A stretch of DNA of 64,000 bases from Sulfitobacter sp. (GTDB lineage: Bacteria > Pseudomonadota > Alphaproteobacteria > Rhodobacterales > Rhodobacteraceae), in the NCBI GenBank assembly GCA_049680295.1, contig JBAUHN010000355.1:8836-72835 (forward strand), read 5' to 3'. Made by a program: the position numbers and the translations under genes. Positions within the stretch are counted from its first letter, which is position 1. The number at the start of each line of letters is the position of its first letter. Positions 44,855-63,164 of this stretch are shown in pieces. Under the pieces are notes generated by a model that saw only the letters and a list, made by a program, of their open reading frames with translations, was not told the DNA's origin and ran no database searches.

Positions 44855-45234
44855 AACCTGGGGTCTACCTGTGTTCGGGTCGTCAGTCTGATCGCCATAG
44901 GGCTCATTGGCCGACAAAGATACTATCTGCGCCCTAAAGGGAAACAATTCCACAAGGCATGAGCGGTTGTCCTCCAGCCAGAGGGGGCCATCTGAGCAGA
45001 GGACCGCCACTTCGCAGGGATTCGCCTCTCGGTTTAGGGCAAGAGGTTTGCGCATTCAACTTTCGATGGAAATTACCACAGTATCAAGGCCTGTCACTGC
45101 CTCAAAAGCACCGGAGGCTTTGTTGCACTGGTTTGCAAACACAGTTATAATCGGCGCATAATTTTCTTTTGTTAAAGAACCGCTTTCATCGCTGACAGCA
45201 GCGATACGGGCCTGTGAATTTAAGGGGTAAGATC

Positions 45235-46203
45235 ATGACAGTTATGGCAGTGATAAAACGGATTGGGTTTTGCCTGTCCATGGCGGTTCTGGCGGCCTGT
45301 CAGGCGGGGGCGGCCAGCGATCTTCCCAACGCAGCAGGCGCCACCAGCGCGGCCCCGACCACAGATATTGCCCCGACACTGGCGCGCAGCCCCGACGCGC
45401 GCCGCCTGAACCTGCGCGTCATCCAATCAGGTCACAGCCTGACCGATCCGATCCCCGAGATTCTGCGCGGCATGGTCAGCGCCCGTGGCATCCAGAACCC
45501 GGTCATCGACCGATCCACCATTCCCGGCAGCCCGATGAGCTGGCGTTGGGACAACGCACCCGGATACGGCGAACCTGACGCGCGCGCCGACATCGGCAAA
45601 TACGAAGTGCTGGTGCTGACCGAAGGGGTGTCGATGTCGTTGACCCTGCCGCATCACAAATCCGATGAACTGGCTTTGCGCTGGTTCAAAAACACATGGT
45701 CCAAAGGCAACAATGGCAAAGGCGCCGAAACCATCCTTTATGCGTCCTGGGTCCATATCACCAGCGGCCCGAACTGGGAAAACCCCTATAAAGACCCCGA
45801 AGGCAATATCCCGTTCCGCAAGCGGCTGCCGCTGGAGTTCGCGCGCTGGGAACATGTGGCCAAATACGTCAATGCCAACCGCCCCAAGGGATCGCCCGCG
45901 ATGCGCATCATCCCCGGTCCTTTGCTGATGGCCGCCCTTTATGACGCAATTCAGGCCGGTAGGGCACCGGGGCTGACCAACATCTCGGATGTGTTCGAGG
46001 ATGAAATCCACGTCAACGATAAGGGCGCCTATTTTATCGCACTGGCACATTATGCTGTGATTTACGGCCAGAACCCGCGTGGATTGCCCTATAATCTTGG
46101 ATTGGCGCGACCGCCCAGCCGTGACCTTGCCCTGTGGATGCAGGATCTGGTCTGGAAAGTTGTGACAGATTACAAAGGCGCGGGCGTGCGGGCCTCTGGA
46201 TAA
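45235..46203 (+). CDS. Lipoprotein, SGNH-like hydrolase candidate (paralog 1 of the pair bracketing the PKS/NRPS locus)
   Basis: Lipobox AVLAAC, GHSL block (IQSGHSLTD) and C-terminal DEIHVND (DxxH). About 35-40% identity by eye with 62232-63164 across all blocks. Confidence 0.7.
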   Translation: MTVMAVIKRIGFCLSMAVLAACQAGAASDLPNAAGATSAAPTTDIAPTLARSPDARRLNLRVIQSGHSLTDPIPEILRGMVSARGIQNPVIDRSTIPGSPMSWRWDNAPGYGEPDARADIGKYEVLVLTEGVSMSLTLPHHKSDELALRWFKNTWSKGNNGKGAETILYASWVHITSGPNWENPYKDPEGNIPFRKRLPLEFARWEHVAKYVNANRPKGSPAMRIIPGPLLMAALYDAIQAGRAPGLTNISDVFEDEIHVNDKGAYFIALAHYAVIYGQNPRGLPYNLGLARPPSRDLALWMQDLVWKVVTDYKGAGVRASG

Positions 46204-46439: not shown

Positions 46440-49400
46440 ATGGACGGTTCTGATCAAGATATTCCGGTAAACGACAACGACATCGCTATCGTTGGTATGG
46501 CAGCGCATCTTCCGGGTGCGCGCACCATTGGCGATTACTGGGACAACCTGCGGGGTGGCGTCGAATCGATCCGCAAACTCACCCCCGAAGAACTGCGCGC
46601 CGCCGGTGAGCCTGAACATATTTCAGGCCGTCCCGATTATGTGCCCTATGCTGCCGTGCTTGAAGGCTTTGAAACATTTGACGCCGAATTCTTTGGTTTT
46701 TCCCCCAAAGAAGCCGCGATCATGGACCCGCAGCACCGCCAGTTTCTGGAGGTCGCCTGGGCCGCGCTGGAAAACGCGGGCCACCCGCCTGAAAACACCC
46801 CCGGACCGGTGGGCGTTTTTGCCGGCTGCGGCATGGGCAGCTATTTCTATTTCAACGTCTGTTCAAACCCGGATCTGGTCGACAATGTCGGCATGTTCCT
46901 GCTGCGCCACACCGGCAACGACAAGGATTTTCTGGCCACACGTCTTAGCCACACACTGGACCTCAAAGGCCCCAGCGTGAACATGCAGACCGCCTGTTCG
47001 ACATCACTGGTGACCACCCATTATGCCTGTCAGGCGCTGATGAACGGCGAATGTGACATGGCGCTGGCGGGGGGTGTGACGATCGAATTGCCCCACGCGC
47101 GCGGCTATCTTTACAAAGAAGGCGAAGTCCTGTCGCCGGATGGTCATTGTCATGCCTTTGATCACCGCGCCCAGGGCACGGTTTTTGGATCAGGGGCGGG
47201 CGTTGTTGTGCTGCGCCGTCTCGCGGACGCGATTGCCGATGGCGATCACATCTGGGCGGTGATCAAGGGCACGGCGATCAACAATGATGGCGCCGCCAAA
47301 GCCGGGTATCTGGCGCCTTCCGTCGATGGGCAAGCCGCCGCCATTGCCGAGGCGCATATGATGGCCGGCACCCCGGCCGACACCATTGATTACATCGAAT
47401 GTCACGGCACCGGCACCTATCTGGGCGACCCGATCGAGGTTGCGGCCCTGACACAAGCCTTTGCCGAGACCACGGACGATCAGGGTTTTTGCCGGATCGG
47501 GTCGGTCAAAACCAACATTGGCCACCTTGATACGGCGGCCGGTGTCGCCAGCCTGATCAAAACCAGCCTGTCGCTGCACCACAAGCAAATCCCGCCCTCG
47601 CTGGGCTATGAGGCCCCAAACCCGTCGATTGATTTCGATGGCAGCCCCTTTGTCGTCAATGACAAGCTGACCGACTGGGCGTCGCACAAAGGTCCGCGCC
47701 GGGCCGGGGTAAATTCACTGGGTGTGGGCGGAACCAATGCCCATGTTGTCCTGCAAGAAGCGCCGATGCGCGCCCCATCAGAAGATTCCGACTGGCCGTT
47801 TCAGATCTTGACCGTCTCGGGCCGCACCAAGGCCGCTTTGGACGGCAATGCCGCAGCCCTGGCCGCCCATCTGCGCGCAAACCCTGACCAATCGCTGGCC
47901 GATATCGCCTGGACCCTCAAAGAGGGCCGTCGCGCCTTTGAAAAACGCCGGGTGATTGTGGCCGCAGACCACGCAGAGGCGGCACAGCTGCTGGAAGAAA
48001 ACGATCCGCGCCGGGTGTTCACCCATACGCTGGTCGATGACGCCCCCGAATCCGTCTTTATGTTCCCCGGTGGCGGCGCCCAATACGCCGGCATGGCCCG
48101 CGATCTTTATGAGACCGAGCCGGTGTTCCAGGAATGGATGGACCGGGGTCTCGATATTCTGCAGCCCAAGCTCGATTACGACATCCGGGCGATCTGGCTG
48201 CCGGGTGCGGCAGATCACGCCAGCGCCGAGGAACGTCTGAAAACGCCATCCGTGCAATTGCCGTTGATCATGATCGTGGAATATGCGCTGGCGCAGCTTT
48301 GGATGTCCTGGGGTGTCAAACCCGACGTGCTTGTTGGCCATTCGATGGGCGAGAACACTGCCGCGTGTGTCGCCGGTGTGATGTCGTTTGAGGATTGCAT
48401 CGGTCTGGTGCATCTGCGCGGTCAGCTGTTTGATACCGTGGCCCCCGGGGGCATGCTCAGCGTGCCCTTGCCTGCTGCTGAACTGGAACCTTTGCTGGGC
48501 GACGATCTGGATCTGGGCGCGATCAACGCGCCGGACCTCAGCGTCGCCACAGGCCCGCAGGCCGCCTTGGACGTGCTGGAGGAGGTCCTGAAAGCCCGCG
48601 AGGTCGACTGCCAGCGGATCGGCATCAATATTGCCGCCCATTCGCGCATGTTAGAGCCTATTTTGGAGCGTTTCGGCGCCTATCTGCGTTCGATCACGTT
48701 AAACGCGCCGCAAATCCCTATTGTCTCAAACCGCAGCGGGCAGATGATGACGGATGCGCAGGCCATGGACCCTGACTATTGGGTCGGCCATTTGCGTCAC
48801 ACCGTGCGCTTTGCCGATTGCATCACCACGCTTGCGACAGACGCCACCCCCCGCATCTTTATTGAGGTCGGACCGGGCAAGGCGCTGTCGTCGCTGACCG
48901 GCATGCATGACAAGGTCAGCGCCAATCAGGTCATAGGCAGCCTGCGCCATCCCGATGACACCACAGCCGATGACGCCTATTTCATGGCGATGCTGGGCCG
49001 GGTCTGGGCGGTTGGCGGTGAATTCGACTGGGCGCAGATCTGGGGCGAGGCACGGCGCAACCGTGTGCCGCTGCCGGGATACGCCTTTCAGCGCGCGCCC
49101 TATTTCATTGAACCGGGCAGCAACCAGACCCAAAGTCAGGCCCAATGGCTGACCCGTACCGATGATGTGGGCGACTGGGGCTACCGCCCGGCCTGGGTGC
49201 CGCGCTATGCCGCCTGTGATCTGGATGTCACCCATGATCTGAAAGACGCCGAGACGCAGACATGGCTGGTCTTTGAAGACAACACCGGTCTGTGTACCGG
49301 CATCTCTGAGCGCCTGCGCGGTGCGGGCCAGCGTGTGGTCACCGTCACCCCCGGCGACGCCTTTGTGAAAACCGGCGACGACAGCTATGTGATTGCCCCT

Positions 49401-52400
49401 GAACGGGGGCGCGAAAACTATGATCAGCTGATCGGTGATCTGATCGCCCAAGATAAGGCACCCACCCGCATTCTGCACGGCTGGCTGGTCACCGGGGACG
49501 AAAGCTTCCGCCCCGGCAGCAGCTTTTTCCATCGCAATCAGGAACAGGGCTTCTACAGCCTGTTGTTCCTGGGCCAGGCCATCGGCGGCGAAGATCTGGC
49601 AATGCCTGTGCATATGACGGTTCTGACATCGGGGGCCATGCAGGTCAGCAACGAGGCGCTGCGCTATCCTGATAAATCCACCGTCATGGGACCTGCACGG
49701 GTGCTGCCGCAGGAATTTCCGGGGCTCACCACAACGGTGCTTGATCTGGATCTGCCGCTGGCTGCCAAAGGCCGGCGCAAGGGTCAGATCGCGCCGCAAA
49801 TGAACCGGCTGATTGATCAGACCCTCGAAGATCTGATTGCCGCACCGGCCAATATCACCGCCGCCCTGCGCGGTGAAAAACGTTATGAACTGTCGGTGCG
49901 CAAACTGGAGATACCAGAGCCTGACAAGGGTGATTTGCCCCTGCGCGACAAAGGTGTCTATATGATCACCGGCGGCTTTGGCGGCATTGGCCTGACCATC
50001 GCCCGCGATCTGATCACCACCCATTCGGCCCGCATTGTGCTGCTGTCACGCAGCGCCATGCCGCCGCGCGATCAATGGGATCAGGTGCTGCACCAGAACG
50101 CGCCGCAAGACCCTGTTGTGCGCCGCATCCGCGCCATTCAGGACCTCGAAAACCTGGGCGGCGAAGTGCTGTGCATCGCCGCCGACGTCAGCAACGTCGA
50201 AGACATGCGCGACGCGGTGACCCAGACCCGCGACGCCTTTGGCGACATCAACGGTGTGATCCATGCCGCAGGGCTGATTGCCGATGCCCCGATCATGGGT
50301 AAATCCACCATGGAGATCGAGGACGTGCTCACGCCCAAGGTCCATGGCACCCATGTGCTGGAAAGCATCTTTCCCGATGGCACGCTGGACTGGCTGGTGC
50401 TGTTCTCGTCAACGTCAACCGTGACCACGCCCGCAGGTCAGGTCGATTATGTCGCCGCCAACGAATATCTGAATGCCTATGCCAAATCGCGCAAGGGCGA
50501 CAAAACCCGGGTGCTGGCGATCAACTGGGGGGTCTGGTCCGAGGTCGGCATGGCCGCGGATGCGATGCTGGCACGGTCCGGCAGCGCCACGCCGCCGCCT
50601 TCTGATCCGGCCCATGTCCCGATGCTGGACGCCGCCACCTTTGGCCCGGCCCATAACCGGGTCTTTACCGCCACATATACCGCCAAGGACCGCTGGTTCC
50701 TGGATGAACACCGCACCAAAGCAGGCGACGCACTGTTGCCCGGCACCGGCTATCTGGAACTGGCCGCCGAAGCGCTGGAGGCGCAGGGCGAAACCAGCCC
50801 GTTTGAAATTCGCGATCTCTATTTCCTGCGCCCGCTGGCTGTGGGCGATGACGTGGCCCAAAACATCCGTCTGCGGCTGCCGCGCAGCGATGTCGGCTAT
50901 GATTTCTCGGTGCAAAGCAGCGATACGGACGCCTTTGAGATCAACGCCCAGGCCAGCCTGTCCCTGCTGCCGATGGAGACCCCCGAGGCGGTGGATATCG
51001 CGGCCCTGCGCGCGCGCTGCACAGTGGCGGCCACTGCGGATGCAGGTGCCGCCATCACCTCGCGGCAAGAAGAACATCTGAACTTTGGCCCGCGCTGGCG
51101 GGTGCTGATGTCGACCGCTTATGGCGACAACGAAGGTCTGGCCGATCTGAAACTGTCAGATGCCTATCAGGGCGATCTGGACGATGGCTATGTGCTGCAC
51201 CCCGGTCTGATGGATCTGGCCACCGGCTGGGCGATGGATCTGATCCGCGACTACCAGCCCACCAACCTGTGGGTACCGGTGTCTTATGGCTCTGTCAAAG
51301 TCTACCGCGATCTGCCGCGCGAGGTGGTCAGCTGGGTCCGCAATGCCGGTGACAACCACGCCGGCGGCCAGATGGCCAGCTTTGATGTCACCATCATGGC
51401 CCCCGATGGCACCGTCTGCGTCGAGATCAAAGGCTTCTCGATCCGGCGCATGGACAGCGTTGCCGATTTCGCCAAAACCGAAAACGCCGCCGTCGCACAG
51501 ATAGACGAGGACGCACCGCGCCCCTTGTCACCTGCCGAAGAACGGCTGCGGCACAATATCTCGCAGGGCATCAAACCGCATGAAGGCTCGGATGCGTTTT
51601 TCCGCGCGCTGGCCTCATCGGCGCCACAGGTCATCGTGTCTTCGCTGGATCTGGATTTGCTGACCGCGCAAGTCGCCGAAAGCTCGGCGGTGCCGGAAAG
51701 CTCCGAGCAGACCTTCCAGCGGCCGGAACTGGATTCCGAATACGCCGCCCCCGCCAATGACATCGAGGAAAAACTGGCCAGCATCTGGCAGGATTTGCTG
51801 GGTGTCGATCAGGTCGGCGTCGAAGACAGCTTTTTCGACCTCGGGGGCCATTCGCTGATCGCGGTGCGGCTGTTTGCGCAGGTGCGCAAGGCCTATAGTG
51901 TCGATTTTCCGATCTCGGTGCTGTTTGAAGCGCCAACCATCCGCAAATGCGCTGAAATGATCGCCGCACGCGGTGTGGCCACATCCTCGGATGCCGGTGA
52001 CAATGCCACCGCAGCGCCCGAAACCGCCACCCGCCGCTTTACCCATCTGGTGCCGATGCACGCAGGCGAGGCCGGACCGCAAACGCCGTTCTTTCTGGTT
52101 GCGGGCATGTTTGGCAACGTGCTGAACCTGCGCCATCTGGCGCATCTTCTGGGCGCGGACCGGCCATTCTACGGGTTGCAGGCGCGCGGGCTTTACGGCG
52201 ATGAGGCGCCCCATACCTCCCTGGTTGAGGCGGCCACCGATTACATCGCTGAAATCCGTGCCGTGCAGCCGCATGGGCCTTATATGGTTGGCGGATTTTC
52301 CGGCGGCGGCATCACCGCCTATGAGATCGCACAACAATTGACAGCCATGGGCGAAGAAGTATCGGTTCTGGTGATGCTCGACACACCGCTGCCGGTGGCA

Positions 52401-52913
52401 GAGCCTGTGACCCTGCGTGACCGGCTTATGATCCAATGGATTGAGCTGCGCAAAAAAGGCCTGAACTATCCGCTGCAATGGGCCAGAAACCGCATTGCAT
52501 GGGAACTCTCCAAGCGCCGCGGTGACGCGGACGGCGATGACATGCCCGCCAATCAGTTCCACAACACCGAAATCGAAGCCGCGTTCATGGAAAGCGTGCG
52601 GTCTTACCAGGTCAAACCCTGGAACGGCCCATTGGCAATGATGCGCCCGCCCTTGGTTGGCACCTGGGAAGTCGCCCCAGGCCGCTGGATCAATGATGAA
52701 CGTGACTATGTGCTGCATGACAATGGCTGGACCGGCTGGGCGCCCAAAATCGAAGTGTTCGAAGTGCCCGGAGACCACGATTCCATGGTGTTAGAGCCGA
52801 ATGTACGGGTGCTTGGCGCCCGGATGAAGCGCTGTATTGAGGCGGCAGGTCGCAGCCCCGGCGTCGCACCCGTCTCCGCAGGCCTGCGCACCATTAAAAA
52901 GGCAGCAGAATAA
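46440..52913 (+). CDS. Type I polyketide synthase, KS-AT-KR-DH-T-TE
   Basis: KS: TACSTSLV, ECHGTGT, KTNIGHLDTAAG. AT: GHSMGE..R..IAAHS. KR: GGFGGIGL, HAAGLIAD, S..YVAANEYL. DH: HRTKAGDALLP and HPGLMD. Carrier: FFDLGGHSL. TE: GGFSGGG, LDTP, GDHDSM. Confidence 0.92.
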   Translation: MDGSDQDIPVNDNDIAIVGMAAHLPGARTIGDYWDNLRGGVESIRKLTPEELRAAGEPEHISGRPDYVPYAAVLEGFETFDAEFFGFSPKEAAIMDPQHRQFLEVAWAALENAGHPPENTPGPVGVFAGCGMGSYFYFNVCSNPDLVDNVGMFLLRHTGNDKDFLATRLSHTLDLKGPSVNMQTACSTSLVTTHYACQALMNGECDMALAGGVTIELPHARGYLYKEGEVLSPDGHCHAFDHRAQGTVFGSGAGVVVLRRLADAIADGDHIWAVIKGTAINNDGAAKAGYLAPSVDGQAAAIAEAHMMAGTPADTIDYIECHGTGTYLGDPIEVAALTQAFAETTDDQGFCRIGSVKTNIGHLDTAAGVASLIKTSLSLHHKQIPPSLGYEAPNPSIDFDGSPFVVNDKLTDWASHKGPRRAGVNSLGVGGTNAHVVLQEAPMRAPSEDSDWPFQILTVSGRTKAALDGNAAALAAHLRANPDQSLADIAWTLKEGRRAFEKRRVIVAADHAEAAQLLEENDPRRVFTHTLVDDAPESVFMFPGGGAQYAGMARDLYETEPVFQEWMDRGLDILQPKLDYDIRAIWLPGAADHASAEERLKTPSVQLPLIMIVEYALAQLWMSWGVKPDVLVGHSMGENTAACVAGVMSFEDCIGLVHLRGQLFDTVAPGGMLSVPLPAAELEPLLGDDLDLGAINAPDLSVATGPQAALDVLEEVLKAREVDCQRIGINIAAHSRMLEPILERFGAYLRSITLNAPQIPIVSNRSGQMMTDAQAMDPDYWVGHLRHTVRFADCITTLATDATPRIFIEVGPGKALSSLTGMHDKVSANQVIGSLRHPDDTTADDAYFMAMLGRVWAVGGEFDWAQIWGEARRNRVPLPGYAFQRAPYFIEPGSNQTQSQAQWLTRTDDVGDWGYRPAWVPRYAACDLDVTHDLKDAETQTWLVFEDNTGLCTGISERLRGAGQRVVTVTPGDAFVKTGDDSYVIAPERGRENYDQLIGDLIAQDKAPTRILHGWLVTGDESFRPGSSFFHRNQEQGFYSLLFLGQAIGGEDLAMPVHMTVLTSGAMQVSNEALRYPDKSTVMGPARVLPQEFPGLTTTVLDLDLPLAAKGRRKGQIAPQMNRLIDQTLEDLIAAPANITAALRGEKRYELSVRKLEIPEPDKGDLPLRDKGVYMITGGFGGIGLTIARDLITTHSARIVLLSRSAMPPRDQWDQVLHQNAPQDPVVRRIRAIQDLENLGGEVLCIAADVSNVEDMRDAVTQTRDAFGDINGVIHAAGLIADAPIMGKSTMEIEDVLTPKVHGTHVLESIFPDGTLDWLVLFSSTSTVTTPAGQVDYVAANEYLNAYAKSRKGDKTRVLAINWGVWSEVGMAADAMLARSGSATPPPSDPAHVPMLDAATFGPAHNRVFTATYTAKDRWFLDEHRTKAGDALLPGTGYLELAAEALEAQGETSPFEIRDLYFLRPLAVGDDVAQNIRLRLPRSDVGYDFSVQSSDTDAFEINAQASLSLLPMETPEAVDIAALRARCTVAATADAGAAITSRQEEHLNFGPRWRVLMSTAYGDNEGLADLKLSDAYQGDLDDGYVLHPGLMDLATGWAMDLIRDYQPTNLWVPVSYGSVKVYRDLPREVVSWVRNAGDNHAGGQMASFDVTIMAPDGTVCVEIKGFSIRRMDSVADFAKTENAAVAQIDEDAPRPLSPAEERLRHNISQGIKPHEGSDAFFRALASSAPQVIVSSLDLDLLTAQVAESSAVPESSEQTFQRPELDSEYAAPANDIEEKLASIWQDLLGVDQVGVEDSFFDLGGHSLIAVRLFAQVRKAYSVDFPISVLFEAPTIRKCAEMIAARGVATSSDAGDNATAAPETATRRFTHLVPMHAGEAGPQTPFFLVAGMFGNVLNLRHLAHLLGADRPFYGLQARGLYGDEAPHTSLVEAATDYIAEIRAVQPHGPYMVGGFSGGGITAYEIAQQLTAMGEEVSVLVMLDTPLPVAEPVTLRDRLMIQWIELRKKGLNYPLQWARNRIAWELSKRRGDADGDDMPANQFHNTEIEAAFMESVRSYQVKPWNGPLAMMRPPLVGTWEVAPGRWINDERDYVLHDNGWTGWAPKIEVFEVPGDHDSMVLEPNVRVLGARMKRCIEAAGRSPGVAPVSAGLRTIKKAAE

Positions 52914-52915
52914 CG

Positions 52916-53929
52916 ATGTCTCACCCCACAGTTCTGACCATCATCCTGAACTATAAAACCGCCCCGATGACCCAGAAATCCATCGCCGCAGCGCGGGCCG
53001 CGATGGCCGGGTTATCCGGTGAAATCACCGTCGTTGATAACGCCTCACAGGACGGATCCTTCGAGACGCTGTCGGCGTATGTGGCAGGCCTTGGCCCCGA
53101 TCCGGACATCCCGGTCCGGGTCCTGGCATCGGGCCGCAATGGCGGCTTTGGGGCGGGCAATAACGTCGGCATCCGCGCCGGGCTGAAGGATGGATCGAAA
53201 CCCGATTACGTCTATGTGCTGAACTCTGACGCCTTCCCGGACAAAGACGCCATTCGTCTGCTGCTGGCGCATCTGCAAACCCACCCCGACGCGGGTTTTG
53301 CCGGCAGTTACATCCATGGCGAAGACGGCGACACCCATCTGACGACATTCCGGTTTCCCTCCGTGTTCAGCGAATTCGAAGGGGCGATCCAGTTTGGCCC
53401 GGTCAGCCGTCTGCTGGCCAAATATGCCGTGCCGGTCAAAACCCCGGACACGGTCACACCCGTCGACTGGCTGGCAGGCGCCAGCATCATGATGCGCCAA
53501 AGCGTGCTGGATGAAATTGGCATCTTTGACGAAGAATTCTTTCTCTATTTTGAGGAAACGGACCTGTGCCGCCGCGCCCATCTGGCCGGGCATCAGACCG
53601 TGTTTGTGCCGCAAAGCCGTGTGGCCCATATCGGGTCGGTGTCCACGGGCATGAAAACATGGGGGCGGGTGCCGGGCTACTGGTTTGCCTCGCGGCGCTA
53701 TTATTTCACCAAGAACCACGGCCGGCTTTATGCGGGTCTGGCCACGCTGGCGCATCTGGCGGGGGGCGGGCTGCACTGGCTGCGCTGTCTGGTGACGCGC
53801 CGCGCCAACAACACGCCGTCGCATTTCCTGCGCACCTTGGCCTGGCATGATCTGACCGCCCGGCGCCGCGAGAATCCAAAACCGCAACCTGCGCTGACAT
53901 CCACGCCCCATCCAACGACCGGAGAATAA
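52916..53929 (+). CDS. Glycosyltransferase family 2 (embedded between the PKS and NRPS genes)
   Basis: LTIILNYKTAPMT..VVDNASQDGS..LNSDA..FLYFEETDLCRR. Starts 2 nt after the PKS stop and ends 4 nt before the NRPS start. Confidence 0.85.
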   Translation: MSHPTVLTIILNYKTAPMTQKSIAAARAAMAGLSGEITVVDNASQDGSFETLSAYVAGLGPDPDIPVRVLASGRNGGFGAGNNVGIRAGLKDGSKPDYVYVLNSDAFPDKDAIRLLLAHLQTHPDAGFAGSYIHGEDGDTHLTTFRFPSVFSEFEGAIQFGPVSRLLAKYAVPVKTPDTVTPVDWLAGASIMMRQSVLDEIGIFDEEFFLYFEETDLCRRAHLAGHQTVFVPQSRVAHIGSVSTGMKTWGRVPGYWFASRRYYFTKNHGRLYAGLATLAHLAGGGLHWLRCLVTRRANNTPSHFLRTLAWHDLTARRRENPKPQPALTSTPHPTTGE

Positions 53930-53933
53930 CCCC

Positions 53934-56900
53934 ATGTCCGATTTCAATTCCATCGTCATCGGCAACGAATCCCTTGTGATTCAATGCGGTGACATGCTGT
54001 TGCAGGGCGGGCATAAGATCAGCGCCCTTGTCACCCGCAACCCGGACGTGCGCGCCTGGGGCGAAAAACAGGGTCTAAGCGTGCATAGGCCGGGGTCTGA
54101 TCTGGCGGATCGGCTGGGGGATACCCCCTGTGACTGGCTGTTTTCCATCGCCAACCTCGATATTATTCCGCAGGCCCTGCTGGACCGCGCCGCCAAAGGG
54201 GCGATCAACTTTCACGATGGGCCCCTGCCGCGTTATGCCGGTCTGAACGCACCGGCCTGGGCGCTGATCAACGGCGAGGCGCAGCACGGCATCACCTGGC
54301 ACCTGATCGAAGGCGGCATCGACGAAGGCGATATCATCGAGCAACGCAGCTTTGACATCGCCCCCCATGACACTGCCCTGACGATGAACACCAAATGCTA
54401 TGTCGCGGCGATCGAAAGTTTCGGCGCGGTGATATCGGCCGTGGCAGATGGTCTGCCCGGCCGCCGCGCTCAGGACCTGTCCCAGCGCAGCTATTTCGCC
54501 AAAGACGCCCGGCCCGCCGCTGCCGCACGGCTGGATTTCAATACATCCGCCAAAGATCTGGTGGCCTTGGTGCGGGGCCTTGATCATGGCGACTACTGGA
54601 ACCCGCTGTCTTGCCCCAAGATCGAAGCGAATGGCCAAATCTGGCTGATCGGCGCCGCCTCTGTCGCCGAAGACAGCCCCGATGCGGCCCCCGGTACGGT
54701 CCTTGCCAGCGACGGCGACACACTGACTGTTGCCACCGGTGCAGGCGCCATTGCGCTGACAAATATCAGACCCTGCACAGGCGATGCGGACCTGCCACAG
54801 GCAGGCGATGTCCTCTCCTCGCCCTCGGCAGCCGAGGCAACGGCCCTTGATGCCGTCCTGGCCAAAACCCTGCGCGCAGAACCCTATTGGCGCAAACGTC
54901 TTGAAACCCTGACCCCGGCGCAGGCCCCTTTGATGCAGGCCACGGATGCCAAGGGCGTCGAGACGCGCAAATTAAATCTGCCCGCGGCACTAGGCGCGGA
55001 TGATCAGGCCGCAGTGCTGGCCACATTGGTCCTGCGCCTTGGCGATGACAGCACCATTGATCTGGCCTGGCAGGACGCAGGAACCACCCATAACGCGCCA
55101 AAACCCTATGTCAGAGACTGGGTGCCGCTGCGGTTTGAGACAAAAGACAGCTTTGACGCCGCCAGCACCGCACTCGCCGATGAGATCGCAACCGCGCGCA
55201 GCAAGGGCGGTTTTGCCTGCGATCTGCCCGCGCGTATTCCGGGTCTGGATGCTGCGCAAATGCCGCAGGTCGGGGTGACATCCGGCCGTGAAATCATTTC
55301 CGGCACGGTTCTGACCCTTGCCACCGGTGACGCCCCCGCCCTGATCGCGGATGCCGCACAGATGCCCGCCGCCCTGCTGGATCTGATCGCAGCGCGTCTT
55401 GAAACCCTTGGCACAGCCCTTGCCATGCCTGACGCGCGCGGCCAGGCGCTTAGTGCCCTGCCGATCCTGCCGGATGCAGAACGCCAGCACATCCTGCAGG
55501 GCCTGAACGACACAAAAACCGCCTACCCGGCAGATGCCTGCATTCATCAGCTGTTTGAAGCCCAGGTCGCCCGCACGCCGGACGCCGAAGCACTGGTGTT
55601 TGAAGGCGAGGTGCTAAGCTATGCCGCGCTGGATGCGCGCGCCAATCAGGTGGCCCATGTGTTGCGCGATATGGGCGTCGGCCCCGGCAAAACCGTCGGG
55701 CTGCATTTGCGCCGCTCGACCGAATTGCTGGTGGGCGCCCTGGCGATCTTTAAGGCCGGGGGCGCTTATGTGCCGCTGGACCCAGGCTTCCCCTCTGATC
55801 GCATTGCCTACTACATCGAAGACAGCGCCGCACCGGTGATCATCACCCAGAGCGATCTGGCAGCGGGCCTGCCCGCGCATAGTGCCAAAGTGCTTGTGTT
55901 AGAGAGTGATCCGCGCATTGCCGCCGCCGCCACAGACACGCCCGACAGCGGTGTTTCCGCCTCTGATCTGGCCTATCTGATCTACACTTCCGGCTCGACC
56001 GGCAAGCCCAAGGGCGTCATGGTTGAACACCGCAATGTATCGAATTTCTTTACCGGCATGGACGCCCATATCAGCCATGACCCTGCGGGCGTCTGGCTGG
56101 CCGTGACCAGCCTGTCGTTTGATATCTCGGTGCTGGAACTGTTCTGGACCCTTGCGCGGGGTTTCAAACTGGTGCTTAGCAGCGATGAAGACCGCGGTCT
56201 GATCTCAAACGGGGGGCTGCAGGTATCCGACACGCCGATGGATTTCAGTCTCTATTACTGGGGGAATGACGATGCTGTCGGCACCGAGAAATACAAATTG
56301 CTGCTGGAAGGCGCGAAATTCGCCGATGACCACGGCTTTTGCGCTGTCTGGACGCCTGAACGGCATTTCCACGCCTTTGGCGGGCCTTATCCCAACCCGT
56401 CCGTGACCGGTGCGGCGGTGGCTGCCGTGACCAAAAATCTGTCGGTGCGCGCCGGTAGTATCGTCGCCCCCCTGCACCATCCTGCGCGCATTGCCGAAGA
56501 ATGGGCGGTGATTGACAATCTGACGGGGGGCCGTGTCGGGCTGGCCATGGCCTCGGGCTGGCAGCCCGATGATTTTGTGCTGCGCCCCGAAAACACGCCG
56601 CCACACAATAAAACCGCCCTGATAGAGACGATCAAGACCGTGCGCCGGCTTTGGGCGGGCGAAGCGGTTGAATTCCCCCGCCAGGATGGCGCGATGCACG
56701 CGGTTGTCACCCAGCCGCGCCCGATTTCGGACAAAATGCCGATGTGGGTCACCTCTGCCGGCAACCCCGCCACCTGGGTTGAGGCGGGCGAATTGGGCGC
56801 CAATGTTCTGACCCACCTTCTGGGCCAAAGCGTGGATGAGGTCGCCGAAAAGATCAAAATCTACCACAAGGCGCTGCGCAGCGCCGGGCATGATCCGGCC

Positions 56901-58562
56901 GACCACACCGTCACGCTGATGCTGCACACCTATATCGCCGACAGCCGCGATGCCGCGCGCGACGTCGCCCGCGAGCCGATGAAAAGCTATCTGCGCAGTG
57001 CCGCCGGGCTGATCAAACAATACGCCTGGGCCTTTCCCGCCTTTAAGCGCCCTGAGGGGGCCAAAAACGCCTTTGATCTTGATCTGGGCAGTCTGGAACC
57101 GGACGAGCTGGAAGGCATCCTCGATTTCGCCTTTGAGCGGTATTTCAACGATTCCGGCATGTTTGGGACTGTTTCGGACTGTGTGGAACGGGTCGAAGCG
57201 CTGAAAAAAATCGGCGTTGGCGAAGTCGCCTGCCTGATCGAATATGGCATCGCCACCGACACCGTTCTTGAGGGTCTGCGCCCGCTGGCCGAGGTGTTGC
57301 GCCAGTCCAATCAGGCCACTGAACTGGACGCGGATGATTTCTCCATCGCCGCCCAGATCATCCGCCACAAGGTCACGCATATGCAGTGCACCCCCTCAAT
57401 GGCGCAGATGATCACCATGAACGACGAGGCGCGCAGCGCTTTGGCGCGGGTGCCGCATGTGCTGGTTGGCGGCGAGGCACTGTCGGGTGCGCTGGCCCAG
57501 GAATTGCACCAGATCACCGGCAAGCCGGTCCAGAATATGTATGGTCCCACGGAAACCACGATCTGGTCCACAACCGAACGGACAACAGGCGGCGAGGGTG
57601 TGATCAACATCGGCAAACCCATCGCCAATACCCAGGTCTATGTGCTGGACGAGGACCGCCAGCCCGTGCCCATCGGCACCGCAGCCGAGCTTTATATCGG
57701 CGGCGATGGGGTGACGCGCGGCTATTGGCAGCGCCCTGATTTGACAGACGAAAGATTCGTCGCTGATCCCTTTATAGAGCCTGATATGGCCGCCCCCGGC
57801 GGCGCGCGCATGTACCGCACCGGCGATCTGGTGCGCTGGCGCAGCGATGGGCGGCTTGATTTTCTGGGCCGCATTGACCATCAGGTCAAACTGCGCGGCT
57901 ACCGGATTGAACTGGGCGAAATTGAAGCGGCAATTGACGGCTTTGCAGGCGTGCGCCAATCGGTGGTGATGCCCCGCGAAGACACCCCCGGCCTGACCCA
58001 GCTGGTGGCCTATGTGACCACCACCGCCCCGGTGGCCGAGGCAGCGTTGCGCAAACATATCGGCGCCGGACTGCCTGACTATATGGTACCCGCACGTGTT
58101 GTAACGCTGGACAGCTTTCCGCTGACCCCCAACAAAAAGATCGACCGCAAGGCGCTGCCGGCCCCCATGGCCGTGCAGGCTGCACCCCCCGCGACAGCCA
58201 GCGCCCCGGCCCCGGACGGATCATCGGCCCAGAGGATCGCCGACATCTGGTCACAGATATTGGGCGTCGCCAACATCGGTGCGCGCGATAACTTCTTTGA
58301 TCTGGGCGGGCATTCACTGCTGGCGGTACAGGCCCACCGTGAAATACGCACCACCCTGTCGGTGCCAAAGCTCAGCATCACGGACATTTTCCGCTTTCCA
58401 ACCCTGCAGGCCCTTGCCGCCCAGGTGGATGCGAAATCCGGCGTGTCTGAACCTGCGTCCAAACCCGATGACGCCCCCGCCGTGGCCGAACGGGCCGCAG
58501 CCCGCAGCGATGCCATGTCGCGCCGCAAGGAAATGAGGGCGAAACGTCACGCCCGCTCATGA
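53934..58562 (+). CDS. NRPS starter module: formyltransferase-like domain, C-domain C-lobe remnant, A domain (Gly code) interrupted by a luciferase-like monooxygenase, and T domain
   Basis: F: INFHDGPLPRYAG + GGIDEGDII. A: LSYAALDARAN (A1), LKAGGAYVPLD-type (A2), YLIYTSGSTGKPKG (A3), FDISVLE (A4), then a 360-aa LLM insert, then NMYGPTETT (A5), GELYIGG..GYW (A6), YRTGD (A7), GRIDHQVKLRGYRIELGEIE (A8), LPDYMVP (A9), NKKIDRK (A10). T: FFDLGGHSL. Confidence 0.92.
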   Translation: MSDFNSIVIGNESLVIQCGDMLLQGGHKISALVTRNPDVRAWGEKQGLSVHRPGSDLADRLGDTPCDWLFSIANLDIIPQALLDRAAKGAINFHDGPLPRYAGLNAPAWALINGEAQHGITWHLIEGGIDEGDIIEQRSFDIAPHDTALTMNTKCYVAAIESFGAVISAVADGLPGRRAQDLSQRSYFAKDARPAAAARLDFNTSAKDLVALVRGLDHGDYWNPLSCPKIEANGQIWLIGAASVAEDSPDAAPGTVLASDGDTLTVATGAGAIALTNIRPCTGDADLPQAGDVLSSPSAAEATALDAVLAKTLRAEPYWRKRLETLTPAQAPLMQATDAKGVETRKLNLPAALGADDQAAVLATLVLRLGDDSTIDLAWQDAGTTHNAPKPYVRDWVPLRFETKDSFDAASTALADEIATARSKGGFACDLPARIPGLDAAQMPQVGVTSGREIISGTVLTLATGDAPALIADAAQMPAALLDLIAARLETLGTALAMPDARGQALSALPILPDAERQHILQGLNDTKTAYPADACIHQLFEAQVARTPDAEALVFEGEVLSYAALDARANQVAHVLRDMGVGPGKTVGLHLRRSTELLVGALAIFKAGGAYVPLDPGFPSDRIAYYIEDSAAPVIITQSDLAAGLPAHSAKVLVLESDPRIAAAATDTPDSGVSASDLAYLIYTSGSTGKPKGVMVEHRNVSNFFTGMDAHISHDPAGVWLAVTSLSFDISVLELFWTLARGFKLVLSSDEDRGLISNGGLQVSDTPMDFSLYYWGNDDAVGTEKYKLLLEGAKFADDHGFCAVWTPERHFHAFGGPYPNPSVTGAAVAAVTKNLSVRAGSIVAPLHHPARIAEEWAVIDNLTGGRVGLAMASGWQPDDFVLRPENTPPHNKTALIETIKTVRRLWAGEAVEFPRQDGAMHAVVTQPRPISDKMPMWVTSAGNPATWVEAGELGANVLTHLLGQSVDEVAEKIKIYHKALRSAGHDPADHTVTLMLHTYIADSRDAARDVAREPMKSYLRSAAGLIKQYAWAFPAFKRPEGAKNAFDLDLGSLEPDELEGILDFAFERYFNDSGMFGTVSDCVERVEALKKIGVGEVACLIEYGIATDTVLEGLRPLAEVLRQSNQATELDADDFSIAAQIIRHKVTHMQCTPSMAQMITMNDEARSALARVPHVLVGGEALSGALAQELHQITGKPVQNMYGPTETTIWSTTERTTGGEGVINIGKPIANTQVYVLDEDRQPVPIGTAAELYIGGDGVTRGYWQRPDLTDERFVADPFIEPDMAAPGGARMYRTGDLVRWRSDGRLDFLGRIDHQVKLRGYRIELGEIEAAIDGFAGVRQSVVMPREDTPGLTQLVAYVTTTAPVAEAALRKHIGAGLPDYMVPARVVTLDSFPLTPNKKIDRKALPAPMAVQAAPPATASAPAPDGSSAQRIADIWSQILGVANIGARDNFFDLGGHSLLAVQAHREIRTTLSVPKLSITDIFRFPTLQALAAQVDAKSGVSEPASKPDDAPAVAERAAARSDAMSRRKEMRAKRHARS

Positions 58563-59254
58563 CCCCGGTTCCCGGGTTGGAAGCGGCCCTGCGCAGCCAG
58601 CTGGGCGGTCAGATCTCGGTGGCTTTGGCAGACCCCAAAGCCCCAACCGGCAGATTGTTCCCCGCTGAAGCGGCCGCCATGGCAGCGGCGACGCCAAAAC
58701 GCCTGTCGGAGTTTACCGCCGGACGCGGCGCGGCGCGGCGCGCGCTGGCCGCCATCGGCGTGGACCCTCAGCCCATCCTGCACGCCCCCGACCGTGCACC
58801 GATCTGGCCCGCGGGTGTGACCGGCAGCATCACCCATTGCGACATTTTATGTCTCTCTGCCGTGGCCAGGACCGACACCATCCGCAGCCTTGGCATTGAT
58901 CTGGAACCCGACGCAGACCTGCCCCGCGATCTGGAAGACATCGTCTGTACATCGGCCGAGCGGGGCTGGCTGGACAGCCACCCCGCAGACAGACGCGGGA
59001 CACTGGCCAAGCTGATCTTTTGCGCCAAGGAAAGTGCCTATAAGGCGCAATATCCCCTGACACAGAGCCTGTTTGGCTTTGAGACCTTTGAAATTACCCT
59101 TGATCCGGAGGCGGGGCAATTCACTGCAACCTTCCAAAACCCGGTCGGCGGGTTTGCAGCCGGTGACGTGCTACAGGGGCGGTTTCTGCGGCAACAGGGT
59201 CTGATTTTCACCAGCGTGGTGATCCCACACTCTGACAGCCCGGTGTTCGGCTGA
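58559..59254 (+). CDS. Sfp/EntD-type 4'-phosphopantetheinyl transferase
   Basis: WPAGVTGSITHC, SLGIDLEP and FCAKESAYKA motifs. ATGA overlap with the NRPS stop. Confidence 0.88.
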   Translation: MTPVPGLEAALRSQLGGQISVALADPKAPTGRLFPAEAAAMAAATPKRLSEFTAGRGAARRALAAIGVDPQPILHAPDRAPIWPAGVTGSITHCDILCLSAVARTDTIRSLGIDLEPDADLPRDLEDIVCTSAERGWLDSHPADRRGTLAKLIFCAKESAYKAQYPLTQSLFGFETFEITLDPEAGQFTATFQNPVGGFAAGDVLQGRFLRQQGLIFTSVVIPHSDSPVFG

Positions 59255-62231: not shown

Positions 62232-63164
62232 TTGCTGAGACGTCTCAAACGCCATAGCCCCGCTTTTCTTTTATTGCTGCTTGCCGCCTGTGGCAGCCTG
62301 ACCCGCTGTAGCGGGCCCAAACCACTGGATCAGGCCGCGTTTGACGCGCTTTATGCGACCCCGCAGGCCGTTGGCGCTGGTCCGCAAAAAACCTACCACA
62401 TTGGCCATAGTCTGGTCGGGCGTGACATGCCGGCAATGCTGGCGCAATTGGCCGGAGACGGGCATGGCTATGACAGCCAGCTTGGCTGGGGCAGTCCGCT
62501 GAAAGCGCATTGGGACCCGGATGAGGAAATCAACGGCTTTGACGTTGAAAACAACCACCCGCGTTACCGCGACGCAATGGAGGCGGTGACATCGGGGGAG
62601 TACGACGCGCTGGTGCTGACCGAAATGGTCGAAATCCGCGACGCGATCAAATATTTCAACTCAGGCGATTACCTGCACCGCTGGGCGCAGGCCGGATGGG
62701 GGGCAAACCCCGAAATGCGGGTCTATTTATACGAAACCTGGCATCCGCTGGACGATCCCGAGGGCTGGCTGGAGCGCATAGACAGCGATCTGGCCCGCTA
62801 TTGGGAGGGCGACATCCTGCGCCGCGCGCTGGCCTATGATGACATGCCGCATCCGGTCTATGTGATCCCGGCCGGACAGGTGCTGGCCGCTTTTGTCCGC
62901 GCGATTGAGGCGACCCCCGTCGATGGCCTGTCTGCGCGGGCCGATCTTTTCAGCGATGACATCCACATCAACGATCTGGGGGCCTATCTGGTGGCGCTGA
63001 CGCATTATGCGGTGCTTTATCAGAAATCCCCCGTTGGGTTGCCTCATGCGCTCAACCGTGCCGACGGAACCCCGGCCACAGCCCCCGGTGAAGGCACCGC
63101 ACGATTGATGCAGGAAACGGTCTGGCGCGTGGTGCAGGCCTATCCGCCCGCAGGGCTGCCCTAG
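62232..63164 (+). CDS. Lipoprotein, SGNH-like hydrolase candidate (paralog 2)
   Basis: TTG start, lipobox LLLAAC, YHIGHSLVG, YDALVLTE, DDIHINDLGAYLVALTHYAVLY. Paralog of 45235-46203. Confidence 0.7.
   Translation: MLRRLKRHSPAFLLLLLAACGSLTRCSGPKPLDQAAFDALYATPQAVGAGPQKTYHIGHSLVGRDMPAMLAQLAGDGHGYDSQLGWGSPLKAHWDPDEEINGFDVENNHPRYRDAMEAVTSGEYDALVLTEMVEIRDAIKYFNSGDYLHRWAQAGWGANPEMRVYLYETWHPLDDPEGWLERIDSDLARYWEGDILRRALAYDDMPHPVYVIPAGQVLAAFVRAIEATPVDGLSARADLFSDDIHINDLGAYLVALTHYAVLYQKSPVGLPHALNRADGTPATAPGEGTARLMQETVWRVVQAYPPAGLP

Follow-up and report, generated by a model that had tools for sequence, protein, structure and literature searches.

The window, the whole 64,000-nucleotide stretch of Sulfitobacter sp. 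DNA analysed here, carries the gene for a one-module NRPS, preceded by genes for a PKS and a GT2 glycosyltransferase and followed by one for a phosphopantetheinyl transferase (PPTase) (Table 1). Pfam and NCBIfam resolve the NRPS into a formyltransferase domain (F), a spacer, an adenylation domain (A) split by a luciferase-like monooxygenase (LLM), and a carrier domain (T). The A domain is recognised as two AMP-binding stretches, the second of which (residues 1134–1345) is followed by AMP-binding_C, and its NCBIfam TIGR01733 match lies above the cut-off for that family. The adenylation core motifs A3, A4, A5, A7, A8 and A10 are all intact, as is the carrier serine. The insert, lying between the motifs FDISVLE (residue 729) and NMYGPTE (residue 1201), scores 471.9 bits with TIGR04020 over residues 771–1121, against a cut-off of 244, and has PuwE (6KET) as its best solved relative. 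Pfam identifies two glycosyltransferases in the locus, and the PKS is the likely acceptor of the starter unit made by the NRPS.

Table 1 Genes, domains and specificity-code residues of the NRPS locus, with nucleotide positions in the window. Code positions follow GrsA-PheA numbering.
Feature	Position	Strand	Basis
Partner PKS, KS-AT-KR-DH-carrier-TE	46440..52913	+	Pfam; KS Cys/His/His and AT GHSMG present; syntenic in 78/80 loci
GT2 glycosyltransferase between PKS and NRPS genes	52916..53929	+	Pfam; synteny
NRPS loading-module gene, 1542 aa	53934..58562	+	Stop-free ORF and translation; Pfam Formyl_trans_N/C, AMP-binding (2 stretches), Bac_luciferase, AMP-binding_C, PP-binding
Formyltransferase domain, aa 1-285, N92/H94/D130	53934..54788	+	Formyl_trans_N/C; best solved relative 1FMT
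Spacer of ~220 aa, no catalytic C domain, C-A linker alone recognisable	54831..55493	+	No Pfam match; home-built C-domain HMM
A-domain N-terminal part, aa 541-754; A3 at aa 679, A4 FDISVLE at aa 729	55554..56195	+	Pfam AMP-binding 541-754 = profile 1-242; motifs
Code 235/236/239 = D730, I731, L734	56121..56135	+	1amu mapping; invariant in 120 sequences
Luciferase-like FMN monooxygenase between A4 and A5, aa 771-1121	56244..57296	+	TIGR04020, Bac_luciferase, PuwE 6KET
A-domain C-terminal part, aa 1134-1402, motifs A5/A7/A8/A10	57333..58139	+	Pfam, NCBIfam TIGR01733, motifs
Code 278 = Q1151	57384..57386	+	xPS motif alignment; opposite Q of DhbF-A1; column validated in other A domains
Code 299/301 = L1177, G1179	57462..57470	+	1amu mapping; DhbF-A1 alignment
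Code 322 = M1202	57537..57539	+	NMYGPTE motif; invariant in family
Code 330/331 = I1210, W1211	57561..57566	+	PTETTIWST against identical DhbF-A1 segment
Code 517 = K1402, A10 reading N-K-K-I-D-R	58137..58139	+	1amu mapping; invariant
Carrier (T) domain; phosphopantetheine-attachment Ser1461 at 58314-58316	58230..58424	+	Pfam PP-binding 1433-1497; GGHS Ser invariant in family
Sfp-type phosphopantetheinyl transferase, start overlapping NRPS stop	58559..59254	+	Pfam 4PPT_N and ACPS; synteny

The NRPS gene is a member of the conserved Roseobacter PKS/GT/NRPS/PPTase cluster, which was reportedly first described by Martens et al. in 2007. The order PKS-GT2-NRPS-PPTase is found in 75 of 80 Rhodobacterales loci, the remaining five having one end gene without a match, and relatives of the NRPS are encoded in 563 species-level genomes. 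The F-A(LLM)-T fusion is present in all 80 loci checked and in 119 of 120 sequences of the same architecture, the exception being a sequence of 1314 residues that has no F domain. A four-gene NRPS/PKS/GT/PPTase cluster, its product uncharacterised, has been described as conserved, being present in 28 of 57 Roseobacter genomes (PMC4337385), and two strains of our 80-locus set, Leisingera sp. ANG-Vp and ANG-M1, bear names also listed in that study. Neither a characterised F-A(LLM)-T module nor an identified product of the cluster was found in the searchable literature.

The best solved relative of the F domain (residues 39–285) is the E. coli Met-tRNA formyltransferase (1FMT), with whose catalytic residues Asn92, His94 and Asp130 align. 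This intact triad is present in all 119 homologue rows spanning the site, with one further row gapped. Overall the domain is closer to Met-tRNA formyltransferase, ArnA and sugar N-formyltransferases than to the F domain of LgrA (E = 6e-7). The spacer that follows (residues 300–520) has no Pfam match even at E = 10. Upstream of the A domain we found neither an HHxxxDG motif nor a Pfam Condensation match that would indicate a catalytic C domain; a C-domain HMM built here matches residues 497–546 alone, corresponding to the C-A linker, and a YWRxxL trace at residues 314–333 is not significant with this HMM. Among split modules of giant NRPSs, seven of nine have a catalytic HHxxxDG C domain about 330 residues upstream, so that glycine would be N-acylated there by the C domain; as the NRPS described here lacks one, its F domain is the only possible N-acylating activity.

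The ten-residue specificity code of the split A domain reads DILQLGMIWK (Table 1). By 1amu coordinates the anchors Asp235 and Lys517 are present, and all of the Gly-type pocket residues accompany them (I236, L239, Q278, L299, G301, M322, I330 and W331). The register on 1AMU was taken from the coordinate ranges of the alignments rather than from a residue-level alignment. In the N-terminal half the alignment to GrsA-PheA (1amu_A) ends with residue 748 at position 253, which places residue 730 at 235; in the C-terminal half it runs from residue 1176 (298) to residue 1411 (526), placing residues 1177 and 1402 at 299 and 517, respectively. Positions 278, 322, 330 and 331 were placed by the xPS/T and NxYGPTE motifs, with indirect validation via HMM columns, using what we take to be the corresponding motif strings of GrsA. 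The motifs that carry the code begin at residues 729 (FDISVLE, nucleotides 56118–56138), 1147 (VTHMQCTPS), 1175 (HVLVGGEA), 1200 (QNMYGPTE), 1205 (PTETTIWST) and 1400 (NKKIDRK, nucleotides 58131–58151). The sequence-only reading of this DNA had arrived at the same code by hand alignment of these six motifs to GrsA-PheA, and is borne out by both the 1amu coordinates and the HMM columns. Each motif lies where that reading placed it in the open reading frame 53934–58562, and the span it gave, 56116–58141, is correct to within 2 nucleotides.

To read the same columns in other proteins, HMMs of both A-domain halves were built from 120 family members and applied to approximately 850 A domains from 150 unrelated giant multimodular NRPSs. 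These columns yield textbook Thr, Ser, Val and Asp codes elsewhere (e.g. DFWNIGMVHK, DVWHFSLVDK, DALWLGGTFK and DLTKVGHIGK), and DAWQFGLIDK was likewise among the textbook codes recovered, indicating that the choice of columns is right, including that for position 278, which falls outside the 1amu coverage. Of the complete codes read from 514 unsplit A domains, most are 5–8 mismatches away from DILQLGMIWK, and every code within two mismatches is of the DILQxGxxWK type; the match of the query is therefore not by chance. Within these giant NRPSs the DILQxGxxWK type is found in 8/8 monooxygenase-split A domains with complete codes, compared to 34/514 unsplit domains (Fisher p = 9e-10), although the LLM-split domains probably belong to a single lineage and the eight are hence not eight independent events. 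Four of these eight carry exactly DILQLGMIWK.

Nine of the ten code positions are invariant in the 120 sequences of the same architecture, which are 67–82% identical over the A domain, compared to 25% of all A-domain columns. In the 80 named Rhodobacterales orthologues the code varies at position 299 only, all 80 reading DILQxGMIWK with Met (57), Leu (18), Phe (2), Tyr (2) or Ile (1) at that place, so that an aromatic residue stands there in four. The A10 motif of the query has NKK in place of the near-universal NGK. We considered this as a marker of monooxygenase-split domains and rejected it, a basic residue being found at that place in only one of nine split domains of giant NRPSs.

The textbook glycine code, DILQLGLIWK, differs from that of the query at position 322, where it has Leu instead of Met. 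The earlier description of the query code as a nine-out-of-ten match to glycine is thus accurate but understated, since the match is ten out of ten to the monooxygenase-bearing subclass of Gly domains. In a 2025 survey of 2051 A domains, all four characterised domains of this subclass (CtaG, FtaE, MelG and MtaG) share the code DILQLGMIWK, each MOX-split A domain that has been characterised is specific for Gly, and Leu/Met at 299 and 322 and Ile/Val at 330 belong to the normal variation of Gly codes (PMC12283262). A segment of 78 residues containing the pocket (residues 1138–1215) has as its best solved relative DhbF-A1 (5U89), from the glycine module of bacillibactin synthetase, which was crystallised with glycyl-vinylsulfonamide (Gly-AVS) (PMC10510592, PMC11253843). 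Between positions 278 and 331 DhbF-A1 reads Q/L/G/L/I/W and the query Q/L/G/M/I/W, with Met opposite Leu at 322 as the sole difference. From this relative we infer how the pocket may select its substrate: D730 and K1402 would hold the α-amino and carboxylate groups, while I731, L734, Q1151, L1177, M1202, I1210 and W1211 would fill the side-chain space so that glycine alone fits.

The identical published code, the match to DhbF-A1, the conservation of the pocket and the association with split domains all support glycine as the starter-unit substrate, as had been proposed, and by its code the split A domain very probably activates glycine in the manner of the MtaG/MelG/SolF type. This call repeats a published rule, by which an A domain split by a monooxygenase has the code DILQLGMIWK and glycine as its substrate, and standard substrate predictors would probably return glycine too. 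The relation of code to substrate is not one-to-one, as the Gly module of LgrA differs at seven of the ten positions. That module, which belongs to the top PDB match, has N, L, C, I, I and Y between positions 278 and 331; we set it aside as support for the code and regard it as neutral.

Activation of a different small amino acid, be it Ala, Ser or Cys, or of a non-proteinogenic one, with a misleading Gly-like code, would fit the observation that Cys codes match Gly codes at 299, 322, 330, 331 and 517 (PMC12283262). After masking of the ten code columns, the six A domains nearest to the query are all Gly-type, but Ser-type domains are nearly as similar, with similarities of 0.50–0.54 for the Gly-type and 0.50 for the best Ser-type domain, a small margin. 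The best-named NCBIfam match, SolG, is moreover a serine module, though at 516 bits it falls far below the cut-off of 2200, and the relevant solanimycin module is SolF. Gly codes are told apart from Cys and Ser codes by I236, L239, Q278 and G301, and the query is Gly-type at all four; none of 480 non-Gly-type codes comes within two mismatches of it, and the code is identical to that of four characterised Gly domains in a class whose characterised members are all Gly-specific. A substrate other than glycine is therefore very improbable. Still harder to credit is that the insertion of 350 residues has disabled the A domain and left the code as a functionless relic. The interruption does fall in the middle of the A-domain core, with nothing else specific in favour of such a loss, whereas the core motifs are intact, the ten pocket residues are conserved far above the average of the domain, and A domains interrupted at this very site work in the pathways to myxothiazol, melithiazol and solanimycin (PMC11411415, PMC10204066).

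With glycine as the probable substrate, the role of the F domain can be considered. Its nearest solved relatives are Met-tRNA formyltransferase, ArnA and sugar N-formyltransferases; two glycosyltransferases are encoded in the locus, and the spacer of about 220 residues between F and A is unlike the arrangement in LgrA. Glycine might thus be loaded while the F domain is inactive on glycyl-S-T, being either structural or directed at a sugar amine linked to the cluster glycosyltransferases, which would leave free or hydroxylated glycine as the starter. We consider this unlikely in view of the nearly universal fusion of F to A(LLM)-T, the invariant catalytic triad, and the position of F as the sole candidate N-acylator where most split Gly domains of giant NRPSs sit behind a catalytic C domain. 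Formylglycyl starters also have precedent: for OzmO and CongA, both loaders of the type F-A(Gly)-PCP, and for the rhizopodin loader, a formylglycyl thioester is the proposed starter of the PKS (PMC4504003). By analogy with these loaders, formylation of the glycyl unit by the F domain is likely. The proposal of a formyl-glycyl-S-T starter in the sequence-only reading was, given this precedent and the intact triad, a sound one as far as it went, but it ignored the monooxygenase inserted in the same A domain.

In MtaG and MelG the α-carbon of the N-acyl-glycyl-S-carrier is hydroxylated, and the resulting carbinolamide collapses to a terminal amide and an α-keto acid (PMC11411415). Labelled glycine is incorporated into solanimycin, whose synthetase has a flavin monooxygenase within a Gly A domain; the α-hydroxyglycine that this domain gives is kept (PMC10204066). 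On the strength of these analogies we lean towards a similar role for the inserted monooxygenase here, as a hydroxylase of the glycine α-carbon. In the sequence of events that we envisage, Gly-AMP would form and glycine would pass to the phosphopantetheine on Ser1461; the N-terminal formyltransferase would formylate the glycyl amine, as in the OzmO, CongA and LgrA loaders; the FMN monooxygenase would hydroxylate the α-carbon of the N-formyl-glycyl thioester, as in MtaG/MelG and SolF; and the KS of the adjacent single-module PKS would take over the unit. What the PKS receives would most likely be N-formyl-(α-hydroxy)glycyl or the remnant of its collapse.

A further step is conceivable, and we put it forward tentatively, regarding it as possible rather than probable. 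The formyltransferase and the monooxygenase may be paired on carrier-bound glycine, with the formyl group as the N-acyl group that the monooxygenase needs, to give N-formyl-α-hydroxyglycyl-S-T. This could either be kept, as a masked aldehyde open to glycosylation by GT2, or collapse to formamide and glyoxylyl-S-T, and the module would in effect make an α-oxo PKS starter from glycine. If true, such paired formylation and hydroxylation would constitute an unreported route of PKS priming and give a first chemical lead on the orphan cluster of the Roseobacter group. The specificity call by itself adds little, being correct but ordinary, with the query as one more orthologue in a known class of Gly domains; its value is that the glycine assignment would settle the identity of the first unit used by a four-gene cluster present in hundreds of Rhodobacterales genomes.

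Among characterised systems, DhbF-A1 of bacillibactin synthesis (5U89) is Gly-specific and identical to the query at positions 278, 299, 301, 330 and 331, differing by Leu in place of Met at 322; no insert interrupts this A domain, which belongs to a C-A-T elongation module and needed an MbtH-like partner in the crystal. The initiation module of LgrA (linear gramicidin, F-A-T), the top PDB match of the whole protein, likewise has an N-terminal formyltransferase acting on a carrier-bound aminoacyl group, but it loads valine, its F domain is distant from that of the query, it has neither spacer nor monooxygenase, and the Gly module of LgrA itself has a different code. In OzmO and CongA (oxazolomycin and conglobatin, F-A(Gly)-PCP), as probably in the query, a formyltransferase, a Gly A domain and a carrier start a PKS (PMC4504003). 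These lack the monooxygenase insert, and their clusters encode an oxazole-making ATP-dependent cyclodehydratase (OzmP, CongE); no family of this kind was assigned by Pfam or NCBIfam to the scanned open reading frames of our locus, four of which have no family match.

The monooxygenase insert finds its counterparts in elongation modules. Module 4 of SolF (solanimycin, Dickeya solani), compared here by description rather than alignment, likewise carries a flavin monooxygenase inside its Gly A domain and retains α-hydroxyglycine in solanimycin B, but it operates in mid-chain, with the glycine N-acylated by the polyketide chain and not by formate (PMC10204066). MtaG, MelG, CtaG and FtaE (myxothiazol, melithiazol, cystothiazole and fulvuthiacene, C-A(MOX)-T-TE) carry the luciferase-like monooxygenase in a Gly A domain with the identical code (PMC12283262, PMC11411415). 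Each of them ends its assembly line as an elongation module that has both a catalytic C domain and a TE and in which a sacrificial glycine leaves a terminal amide, whereas the module described here is a starter module in which a formyltransferase replaces the C domain, the TE is absent and the unit would be handed over to a PKS.

The window adenylation (A) domain carries N-K-K in motif A10 in place of the near-universal N-G-K. The residue preceding Lys517 is Arg in 69 and Lys in 50 of the 120 members of the F-A(LLM)-T family, the loading modules whose A domain is split by a luciferase-like monooxygenase (LLM), while Gly occupies this site in 825 of 881 background A domains from giant multimodular NRPSs. 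A basic residue at this site is a mark of the F-A(LLM)-T family, not of monooxygenase-split domains generally. Among orthologues at the 80 Rhodobacterales loci compared (L001–L080), position 299 is the sole specificity-code position that varies (Met in 57 genomes, Leu in 18, Phe and Tyr in 2 each and Ile in 1), with the Leu of the window being a less common state shared with Leisingera, Phaeobacter and part of Ruegeria.

Features of the window locus
Feature	Window position	Residues (aa)	Description
Formyltransferase domain	53934-54788		
Code position 299	57462-57464	1177	
Motif A10 variant	58131-58148	1400-1405	N-K-K-I-D-R
Paralogous pair	45214-46203 and 62232-63164		No family match; one each side of locus

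Of the 80 related loci, 39 contain matches to the two flanking paralogues, but placed downstream of the PPTase; only 2 loci share the bracketing layout of the window.

Some full-length homologues of the same architecture, at ∼60% identity, carry the labels Hydrogenophaga, Acidovorax and Burkholderiaceae (e.g. P0051, P0063, P0109, P0111 and P0112); their similarity to the window protein equals that of many copies from Rhodobacterales, suggesting transfer between classes.

In the representative library, monooxygenase-split Gly modules also occupy mid-chain C-A(LLM)-T-C positions in giant multimodular NRPSs (P0134, P0142, P0197, P0220, P0232 and P0251), so retained SolF-type α-hydroxyglycine residues may be commoner than the few characterised cases imply.

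The formyltransferase domain retains the C-terminal subdomain found in both Met-tRNA formyltransferase and ArnA, and is far more similar to these two enzymes (E = 3e-22 and 2e-16, respectively) than to the F domain of LgrA (E = 6e-7).
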